This document shows positions 32,059 through 34,195 of a stretch of 64,000 bases of DNA, piece by piece. Under the pieces are notes generated by a model. That model saw nothing but the letters and a program-made list of their open reading frames with translations. It did no database searches and was not told the DNA's origin. Each line of letters starts with the position of its first letter. Within the stretch, counting starts at the first letter, position 1. This DNA comes from Escherichia coli (lineage in GTDB: Bacteria > Pseudomonadota > Gammaproteobacteria > Enterobacterales > Enterobacteriaceae): the NCBI RefSeq assembly GCF_024298765.1, contig NZ_CP101210.1, one strand, 5' to 3'. A program made the translations under genes and the position numbers.

Positions 32059-33888
32059 ATGTGTGGAATTGTTGGCGCGATCGCGCAACGTGATGTAGCA
32101 GAAATCCTTCTTGAAGGTTTACGTCGTCTGGAATACCGCGGATATGACTCTGCCGGTCTGGCCGTTGTTGATGCAGAAGGTCATATGACCCGCCTGCGTC
32201 GCCTCGGTAAAGTACAGATGCTGGCTCAGGCAGCGGAAGAACATCCTCTGCATGGCGGCACCGGTATTGCTCATACTCGCTGGGCGACCCACGGTGAACC
32301 TTCAGAAGCTAACGCGCATCCGCATGTTTCTGAACACATTGTGGTGGTGCATAACGGCATCATCGAAAACCATGAACCGCTGCGTGAAGAGTTAAAAGCG
32401 CGTGGCTATACCTTCGTTTCTGAAACCGACACCGAAGTGATTGCACATTTGGTGAACTGGGAGCTGAAACAAGGCGGTACTCTGCGTGAGGCTGTTCTGC
32501 GTGCTATTCCGCAACTGCGTGGTGCGTACGGTACAGTGATCATGGACTCCCGTCACCCGGATACCCTGCTGGCGGCACGTTCTGGTAGCCCGCTGGTGAT
32601 TGGTCTGGGCATGGGCGAAAACTTTATCGCTTCTGACCAGCTGGCGCTGTTGCCAGTGACTCGTCGCTTTATCTTCCTTGAAGAGGGCGATATTGCGGAA
32701 ATCACTCGCCGTTCGGTAAACATTTTCGATAAAACTGGCGCGGAAGTAAAACGTCAGGATATTGAATCCAATCTGCAATATGACGCGGGCGATAAAGGTA
32801 TTTACCGTCACTACATGCAGAAAGAGATCTATGAACAGCCAAACGCGATCAAAAACACCCTTACCGGGCGCATCAGCCACGGTCAGGTTGATTTAAGCGA
32901 GCTGGGACCGAACGCCGACGAACTGCTGTCGAAGGTTGAGCATATTCAGATCCTCGCCTGTGGTACTTCTTATAACTCCGGTATGGTTTCCCGCTACTGG
33001 TTTGAATCGCTGGCAGGTATTCCGTGCGACGTCGAAATCGCCTCTGAATTCCGCTATCGCAAATCTGCCGTGCGCCGTAACAGCCTGATGATCACCTTGT
33101 CACAGTCTGGCGAAACCGCGGATACCCTGGCGGGCCTGCGTCTGTCGAAAGAGCTGGGTTACCTTGGTTCGCTGGCAATCTGTAACGTTCCGGGTTCTTC
33201 TCTGGTGCGCGAATCCGATCTGGCGCTGATGACCAACGCCGGTACGGAAATTGGCGTGGCCTCCACCAAAGCATTCACCACCCAGTTAACTGTGCTGTTG
33301 ATGCTGGTGGCGAAACTGTCTCGCCTGAAAGGTCTGGATGCCTCCATTGAACATGACATCGTGCATGGTCTGCAGGCGCTGCCGAGCCGTATTGAGCAGA
33401 TGCTGTCTCAGGACAAACGCATTGAAGCGCTGGCAGAAGATTTCTCTGACAAACATCACGCGCTGTTCCTGGGACGTGGCGATCAGTACCCAATCGCGCT
33501 GGAAGGTGCATTGAAGCTGAAAGAGATCTCTTACATTCACGCTGAAGCCTACGCTGCGGGCGAACTGAAACACGGTCCGCTGGCGCTGATAGATGCCGAT
33601 ATGCCGGTTATCGTCGTTGCGCCGAACAACGAGTTGTTGGAAAAACTGAAATCTAACATTGAAGAAGTTCGCGCGCGTGGTGGTCAGTTGTATGTCTTCG
33701 CCGATCAGGATGCGGGTTTTGTAAGTAGCGATAACATGCACATCATCGAGATGCCGCATGTGGAAGAGGTGATTGCACCGATCTTCTACACCGTTCCGCT
33801 GCAGCTGCTGGCTTACCACGTCGCGCTGATCAAAGGCACCGACGTTGACCAGCCGCGTAACCTGGCAAAATCGGTTACGGTTGAGTAA
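32059..33888 (+). CDS. glmS: Glutamine-fructose-6-phosphate aminotransferase
   Basis: 609 aa; N-terminal nucleophile Cys in MCGIVGAI (class II amidotransferase) plus tandem SIS domains. Confidence 0.97.
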
Positions 33889-33902
33889 TCTCCATCGTTG
33901 AT

Positions 33903-33934
33903 AAAAAAGGGCTGCCGACCGGCGGCCCTTTTTC
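33903..33934 (+). terminator. glmS intrinsic terminator (overlaps the canonical Tn7 attachment zone downstream of glmS)
   Basis: AAAAAAGGGCTGCCGACCGGCGGCCCTTTTT: GC-rich hairpin followed by a T-tract, 15 nt after the glmS stop. Confidence 0.7.
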
Positions 33935-34195
33935 ATAAGTGATATCAATAAATTCATTATTCATATACCCATCGATATAAATATATTCTGAATTATTATT
34001 AATGTCTGATAATAAACTTGATTTTTTGCTGTTTTAATAATATTTAAATAATTAATTTATATTAAAATGCGACCAATTAATATTATTTTTAGATAAAATC
34101 ATCTCTTTGATGTACTATGCCTTTGAATCAAAAAGGTACCTATTAATATAGGTGATGATTCATGGTAAAGGATATATTATATCAATGGAGTTTTT

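Follow-up and report, generated by a model that had tools for sequence, protein, structure and literature searches.

Two described systems meet between glmS and pstS of Escherichia coli. The first is the Tn7 attachment site attTn7, in which the TnsD site corresponds to positions +23 to +58, i.e. the last 36 bp of the glmS open reading frame (ORF), and the target duplication to positions -2 to +2 (Mitra et al., PMC2918618). No sequence beyond the TnsD site is needed for attTn7 function, attTn7 is a hotspot for Tn7-family elements (PMC2918618), and Tn7 inserts into the glmS transcriptional terminator according to Gay et al. 1986, cited therein. The second is the lpf fimbrial operon, which occupies the glmS-pstS interval in strains SE11, E24377A, SMS-3-5 and O157 Sakai, with 34-63% amino acid identity between SE11 and O157 (PMC2608844), and also in enteroaggregative E. 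coli (EAEC) 042 (PMC2990770). In EAEC, Tn7 was found only in strains without lpfA at glmS-pstS, and the two resistance islands were mutually exclusive (Okeke et al. 2010, PMC2990770). Here, the glmS-pstS region was analyzed in a stretch of 64,000 nucleotides from E. coli (assembly GCF_024298765.1, contig NZ_CP101210.1), hereafter the window, in which four fimbrial genes occupy this slot.

The reading favored here, with a probability of about 0.85, is that the region just downstream of glmS combines an intact attTn7, the glmS terminator and the left edge of an lpf cassette, and that this cassette and the short spacer of K-12 are two old forms of the locus swapped via their flanks.

Breakpoints of the cassette and the glmS terminator

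A base-by-base, ungapped comparison with the glmS-pstS region of K-12 MG1655 delimited the following features.

32059..33888, + strand: glmS, complete ORF of 609 aa with the stop codon TAA at 33886-33888 (TIGR01135, 898 bits)
33853..33888, + strand: TnsD-binding part of attTn7, 36 bp, predicted here from K-12 identity (identical to K-12)
33890..39317, + strand: variable cassette, 5,428 bp, 44% G+C, facing positions 2-207 of the 313-bp K-12 spacer
39318..39422, + strand: right junction, shared pstS promoter region starting with TGTCATAAAACTGTCAT
39423..40463, + strand: pstS coding sequence

An initial annotation, made from the letters of the window, had described the C-terminal coding sequence of glmS as intact, and the complete ORF agreed with this. 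The final 60 nt of glmS were the same as in K-12, as was base 33889 (stop+1), and no similarity was left from 33890 (stop+2). The annotation had also given K-12 a different terminator and placed the boundary at the glmS stop, and had named more than 100 bp of K-12 identity past the stop as evidence to the contrary; the alignment gave one shared base, and the K-12 terminator, TAAATGGATGCCCTGCGTAAGCGGGGCATTTTT, was unlike the hairpin of the window. The similarity to K-12 returned at 39318, about 105 nt upstream of pstS, at the sequence TGTCATAAAACTGTCAT, which is taken to be the Pho box of the pstS promoter. The right breakpoint 39318 was identical in the O157 type, in a second Escherichia type and in Enterobacter.

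The comparison shows a replacement and not an insertion, as 5,428 bp stand in place of a 206-bp K-12 segment, terminator included. The island reported earlier as starting at the terminator indeed has a sharp edge; the part of that description which did not stand is an insertion beside a resident terminator. A short-word blastn search of five fimbrial cassettes for remnants of the 206-bp K-12 spacer returned only chance 10-12-mers. The segment 39176-39317 was considered as a diverged homologue of the K-12 spacer and rejected, its alignment score being reached by 131 of 1000 shuffles. The right ends of the O157 and O113 cassettes showed a weak mutual resemblance (7/1000 shuffles).

Both forms were common in E. 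coli. The lpfO113-type junction, counted when 80% or more of a 501-nt probe was matched, was present in 1,918 of 5,426 complete genomes (35%) and the K-12-type spacer in 2,997 of 5,426 (55%), the remaining genomes including O157-type loci and Tn7-interrupted loci.

The beginning of the cassette was divided into three parts.

33889..33902, + strand: glmS leader, from the stop codon to the A-run, 14 nt, cassette-specific from 33890
33903..33933, + strand: terminator-type hairpin of glmS, from A6 to T5 (folding; stem conserved across Escherichia haplotypes)
33934..34195, + strand: AT-rich stretch 5' of lpfA, 21% G+C, presumed from its sequence to be the lpf regulatory region

The hairpin consisted of A6 (33903-33908), the 5' arm GGGCTGCC (33909-33916), the loop GACC (33917-33920), the 3' arm GGCGGCCC (33921-33928) and T5 (33929-33933). 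The G+C-rich stem was 8 bp long, or 13 bp with the A-U pairs added, carried a 4-nt loop and began 20 nt past the stop; the 15 nt given in the initial annotation was correct as the distance to the A-run and not to this stem. A G+C-rich stem-loop was thus followed by a U-tract on the coding strand, 3' of the stop codon, as in a terminator. Folding of the sense-strand RNA gave -22 kcal/mol (z = -4.66, none of 200 shuffles as stable), and that of the opposite strand -21.2 kcal/mol (z = -3.71). This symmetry suggests that the hairpin may terminate in both directions. The AT-rich DNA reported beyond it was also found, with 21% G+C at 33934-34195 against 53% in glmS. The hairpin was single-copy in the window, with one per locus, always adjoining glmS, which ruled out a dispersed repeat of the REP (repetitive extragenic palindromic) kind.

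The hairpin was compared in seven Escherichia fimbrial sequences: three variants of the O113 type, two further ones, the O157 type (found in Escherichia sp. E1V33 as well) and the second type, taken from the assembly whose LpfB, described below, bears the name E. marmotae/E. ruysiae. The 5' arm GGGCTGCC was invariant in the Escherichia fimbrial haplotypes and the 3' arm was altered only where pairing survives, while the loop varied (GACC, TTTT, GTAT, AGTG, AGCG) and the leader was highly variable. Stem pairing was kept in 70 of 70 cells, with one compensatory and two one-sided changes (U.G to U-A, G-C to G.U and A-U to G-C). The argument for structural conservation rests on this contrast between a fixed stem and a freely drifting leader and loop. 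The hairpin is accordingly read, from sequence and folding, as a predicted Rho-independent-type terminator ending glmS transcription in this haplotype.

It is improbable that the hairpin mainly serves lpf, either as an insulator or antisense terminator shielding the lpfA promoter or as a processed small-RNA element. Such a role would fit its symmetry, with an A-run and a T-run and folding on both strands, its constant association with the fimbrial cassette across the Escherichia haplotypes seen, and its position on the lpf side after Tn7 insertion. However, its orientation and its location 20 nt past the stop are those expected of a glmS terminator, empty haplotypes bring distinct terminators of their own at the equivalent position, and an Rfam scan found no family at the glmS junction. 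The two roles are compatible and not mutually exclusive.

The glmS-proximal hairpins of Salmonella (L027:4879-4925) and of one Enterobacter locus (L049:4331-4385) had a common loop, ATGAAAAT, and unlike stems, each complementary (GGCTGC/GCAGTC vs. GCCTCGC/GTGAGGC). These differences may represent covariation in a homologous terminator.

Tn7 insertion at the cassette edge

attTn7 overlapped the junction, as had been annotated, with the 36-bp TnsD site on the glmS side and the insertion point inside the cassette.

33909..33913, no strand: predicted Tn7 target-site duplication GGGCT, attTn7 -2 to +2, centered at 33911

Complete E. coli genomes were searched with a chimeric probe composed of the glmS end, 25 nt of this cassette and Tn7R. 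In 102 genomes, the distance from the glmS stop to Tn7 was exactly 25 nt, and all alignments were ungapped, whatever the haplotype. The duplication occupied stop+21 to stop+25 in 7 of 7 junctions read, which spanned four junction sequences. Strain Jnd12 has flanks identical to those of the window; in it, AAAAAAGGGCT was joined to Tn7R and, at the other end, Tn7L to GGGCTGCCGACCGGCGGCCCTTTTT; the Tn7R-side junction, with Tn7R adjoining glmS, read GAGTAATCTCCATCGTTGATAAAAAAGGGCT followed by TGTGGGCGG, and the Tn7L-side junction CCGCCCACA followed by GGGCTGCCGACCGGCGGCCCTTTTT. The Jnd12 duplication, GGGCT, equals 33909-33913 of the window, the first five stem bases, so that the whole hairpin was rebuilt on the Tn7L side and glmS was parted from its terminator. 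The same spacing was also observed in two other O113-type variants, in one natural O157-type case and in O157:H7 with an engineered cat mini-Tn7; a K-12-type locus with a genuine Tn7 had the duplication GCGGG at stop+21 to stop+25 and Tn7R beside glmS. The expectation of the initial annotation that a mini-Tn7 would land at the edge of the island was borne out by the natural Tn7 in the identical haplotype and by the engineered element in O157:H7.

These junctions are consistent with an insertion point set by the distance from the TnsD site and not by the local sequence. By this distance rule, Tn7 would duplicate 33909-33913, the first five stem bases, in the strain of the window as well, and would separate glmS from its terminator, leaving a complete hairpin between Tn7L and lpfA. 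The window and K-12 share the TnsD sequence, the duplication distance and an insertion point within the glmS terminator, but the sequence at that point is unrelated, GGGCT in the window haplotype and GCGGG in K-12. In the former, the duplication takes in the initial 5 nt of the 5' arm, so that the hairpin is regenerated at Tn7L, whereas in K-12 it falls within the 3' arm and the hairpin is broken. For users of mini-Tn7, an insertion here parts glmS from its terminator, and the complete hairpin remains between Tn7L and lpfA. The "neutral" attTn7 lies about 280 bp upstream of an adhesin operon in no fewer than 35% of complete E. coli genomes (lpfO113 type, the O157 type being additional); in O157 the distance is about 680 bp.

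With a reciprocal probe (Tn7L, hairpin and cassette), Tn7L was found fused to the hairpin of this cassette in 29 genomes and to the O157-type hairpin in three. The EAEC strains of PMC2990770 differ in this respect, as the complete genomes contain Tn7 and the lpfO113 cassette together in these 29 cases. The cassette accounted for 28% of the Tn7-at-glmS cases against 35% of genomes, clonal structure being ignored, and these counts gave no sign that the cassette excludes Tn7.

Several features of the elements and of the site were noted in addition. The Tn7 copy of Jnd12 (L006, 23370-26945) had IS100 (IS21 family) within tnsE, and in several Tn7 copies aadA1 was frameshifted and intI2 had its usual internal stop. 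A search of genome contigs with an exact 27-mer of the E. coli glmS 3' end (CTGGCAAAATCGGTNACGGTTGAGTAA) returned 15 loci, mostly from distant taxa, of which only Escherichia sp. E1V33, with its O157-type junction, and two short contigs resembling E. coli were informative. The distant contigs were assigned to Roseburia, Treponema, Chlorobiaceae and Rhodobacteraceae metagenome-assembled genomes, each with unrelated downstream sequence. Their 27-mer illustrates the extreme nucleotide conservation of the TnsD site, and some of these contigs are perhaps contaminants.

Age and proposed exchange of the two forms

LpfB homologues with 60-69% identity were found in the Escherichia assembly named E. 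marmotae/E. ruysiae, Salmonella, Enterobacter, Klebsiella and Citrobacter. A homologous four-gene operon was located between glmS and pstS in all three loci inspected, i.e. in that Escherichia assembly, Salmonella enterica and Enterobacter mori (LpfB identity to the window of 69, 64 and 68%, respectively). In each of them, the glmS stop was followed after about 17-27 nt by a terminator hairpin, and the right breakpoint was again the Pho box. The breakpoints were identical in Escherichia and Enterobacter.

Enterobacter genomes with one identical GlmS protein included both occupied states and empty ones with a 276-bp spacer (empty loci L053 and L055-L058; occupied loci L049-L052, L054 and L028/L029). 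The empty Enterobacter spacer shared with the K-12-specific 206 bp a 56-nt block identical at 45 of 56 positions (TGACAA.C.GTCAT.TTC.GCTA.TTTTTC..TGTCACA...). Its score of 34 was reached by none of 1000 shuffles, for which the maximum was 19. Neither empty spacer, of K-12 or of Enterobacter, was detectable inside the occupied cassettes examined. No empty form was found for Salmonella, all contexts returned for the exact GlmS and PstS proteins of L027 being occupied. Since the empty and the occupied forms each have homologues across genera, the cassette is not recent relative to a K-12-like backbone, and the polymorphism appears to predate the species E. coli.

According to the mechanism proposed, the Enterobacteriaceae glmS-pstS spacer would exist in two old, mutually exclusive forms, a short empty one, as in K-12, or a fimbrial cassette, each bringing its own glmS terminator, with the glmS stop codon as the left limit and the pstS Pho box as the right one. 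The forms would be exchanged by homologous recombination in the conserved flanks and not by a site-specific element. The edge would be sharp at the stop codon because the conservation of the coding sequence ends there, and a boundary resembling a precise integration site is better explained by such a limit than by an integration point. A synonymous GTT/GTA polymorphism at 33875, 12 nt before the glmS stop and 14 nt from the cassette, occurred with both states in K-12-type and in O113-type haplotypes. It was therefore unlinked to the cassette type, which is consistent with recombination reaching right up to the junction.

Several points weigh against this reading. The exchange via flanks is inferred from the breakpoints and the absent mobility signatures. 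Sampling of outgroups was patchy, the 27-mer search having yielded a single named Escherichia (sp. E1V33) and no assembly of E. coli, E. albertii, E. fergusonii or Salmonella, and the haplotype counts are BLAST coverage classes and not the result of genome-by-genome inspection. As for the terminator, a consensus scan did not list the hairpin at 33909-33928, probably because the A/T runs lengthen the stem and consume the T tail, and the covariation score was matched by 86 of 500 shuffles in a set of only seven sequences.

A wider form of the proposal is held tentatively, at somewhat less than even odds. The locus could represent an ancient cross-genus polymorphism in which deeply diverged cassettes with the same two breakpoints were kept by flank exchange and perhaps by balancing or diversifying selection. 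The forms would be the empty one and the O113, O157, second Escherichia and Salmonella/Enterobacter cassettes, with persistence in Escherichia and Enterobacter. If this were true, Tn7 with its resistance integron would be genetically linked to, and co-transferable with, whichever cassette is present.

A recent gain of the island on a K-12-like backbone is contradicted by the occupied slot in another Escherichia lineage, Salmonella and Enterobacter. In its full form, this explanation holds that a pathogenicity island was gained recently by horizontal transfer, through a one-off illegitimate insertion into a K-12-like spacer within E. coli, and that the K-12 spacer is ancestral in the species. 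The G+C content of the cassette is below that of the flanks (44% overall, 21% upstream of lpfA), the cassette is distributed patchily in E. coli (35% of genomes, with 55% for the K-12 type), and the empty form is certainly old, its spacer being conserved between E. coli and Enterobacter. However, the homologous operons with the same breakpoints indicate that the occupied form is old too, the E. coli alleles are so diverged that the terminator stem alone aligns (cf. the SE11 and O157 identities of PMC2608844 given above), and no K-12 spacer fragment flanks the cassette. A recent acquisition is consequently regarded as unlikely.

The annotation had also stated that no tns genes or Tn7 ends are present and that the island is not a Tn7 insertion, and the searches supported it on both counts. 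No Tn7 end motif was found in the 64 kb with up to three mismatches allowed, the ends of distant Tn7-like families being outside this model. A tblastn search of the whole window with TnsA-E (Tn7 proteins from strain FDAARGOS_1302) gave no match at E<=1, and neither inverted or direct repeats nor a 5-bp target-site duplication flanked the cassette (33889/39318). A Tn7-type left junction would keep the resident sequence for about 21-25 nt past the stop, while here the divergence began at stop+2. Although the cassette adjoins a known Tn7-family hotspot (PMC2918618) and Tn7 does enter this locus, as in the 102 genomes, the idea that it is the decayed cargo of a Tn7-like element whose tns genes and ends were since lost is very improbable in view of the missing ends, repeats and TnsA-E similarity, the lack of the roughly 25 nt of resident sequence kept in 7/7 junctions, the K-12 spacer being replaced rather than split, and a right breakpoint identical in several very diverged cassettes.

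Much of the locus has been described already, as it joins the known lpfO113/lpf2 operon and the classical attachment site of Tn7. The present analysis adds modest points: a replacement that includes the terminator, the duplication at 33909-33913 with the hairpin at Tn7L, the 29 genomes with both Tn7 and lpf, and the dimorphism across genera. The practical and evolutionary points leave the current understanding of Tn7 and lpf unchanged and confirm known principles.

Fimbrial genes and neighboring sequences

The gene order in the window was the atp operon, glmU (30527-31897), glmS, four fimbrial genes, pstSCAB-phoU and bgl. The fimbrial genes were as follows.

34196..34768, + strand: lpfA-O113, major fimbrial subunit (NF011817, 389 bits, cutoff 203; PF00419)
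34816..35547, + strand: lpfB-O113, periplasmic chaperone (NF011818, 531 bits, cutoff 317; PapD_N, PapD_C)
35572..38094, + strand: lpfC-O113, outer-membrane usher (Usher, PapC_N, PapC_C)
38105..39175, + strand: lpfD-type (StgD-like) tip/adhesin protein (PF00419; "fimbrial protein" in RefSeq)

A 501-bp junction query was 100% identical to E. coli strain 104, in which RefSeq names the genes lpfA-O113, lpfB-O113 and lpfC-O113. The island is the already described lpfABCD-O113 or lpf2 operon (34196-39175) in the glmS-pstS slot. The best match of the 38105..39175 product was StgD, with 228 bits, under the cutoff of 493. The operon presumably also corresponds to the Stg fimbriae described for E. coli and to the stg operon of S. 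Typhi, an equivalence suggested by this below-cutoff NCBIfam match to StgD.

The lpf2 operon of O157:H7 (O-island 154) occupies the same slot as the window cassette and has the same order of major subunit, chaperone, usher and adhesin. It differs in its usher DNA (about 68% identical), an additional fimbrial gene and a 700-bp upstream region; its hairpin has the same terminator stem, with the loop TTTT in place of GACC. The island of EAEC 042 likewise has an lpf operon in the glmS-pstS slot, but it carries a Tn2411 resistance region (PMC2990770), whereas the window is without a Tn21-like region and its cassette runs straight into the pstS promoter. With classical tRNA/integrase islands, the cassette shares a patchy distribution and a G+C content below that of the flanks. 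Unlike them, it is bounded by a stop codon and a promoter element, and its polymorphism is common to several genera. The ORFs of the cassette (33890-39317) included no integrase, and neither a tRNA target nor flanking direct repeats were found.

The AT-rich stretch 33934-34195 gave promoter-like matches at the consensus level only in a consensus promoter/terminator scan. It contained an imperfect 28-nt direct repeat upstream of lpfA (34056-34083 and 34122-34149, 75% identical, 66 nt apart), which might be regulatory or merely low-complexity AT-rich DNA.

In strain N4220121 (L005, 13784-22100), lpfC-O113 was truncated by IS1, and a fragment of a type III effector and hypothetical genes extending to yieH stood in place of pstSCAB-phoU-bgl. 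Because of this replacement, the strain matched the K-12 probe on the glmS side only.

Two RNA features were located upstream of glmS. A full-length Rfam match to the enterobacterial small RNA STnc410 (188 bits) was found at 30286-30443 on the - strand, between atpC and glmU and on the strand opposite to both genes. An rRNA operon occupied 1-3918 of the window on the - strand, with 16S (2377-3918), a tRNA (2219-2291), a StyR-44 match (2039-2138) and 23S, which extended past the window start.

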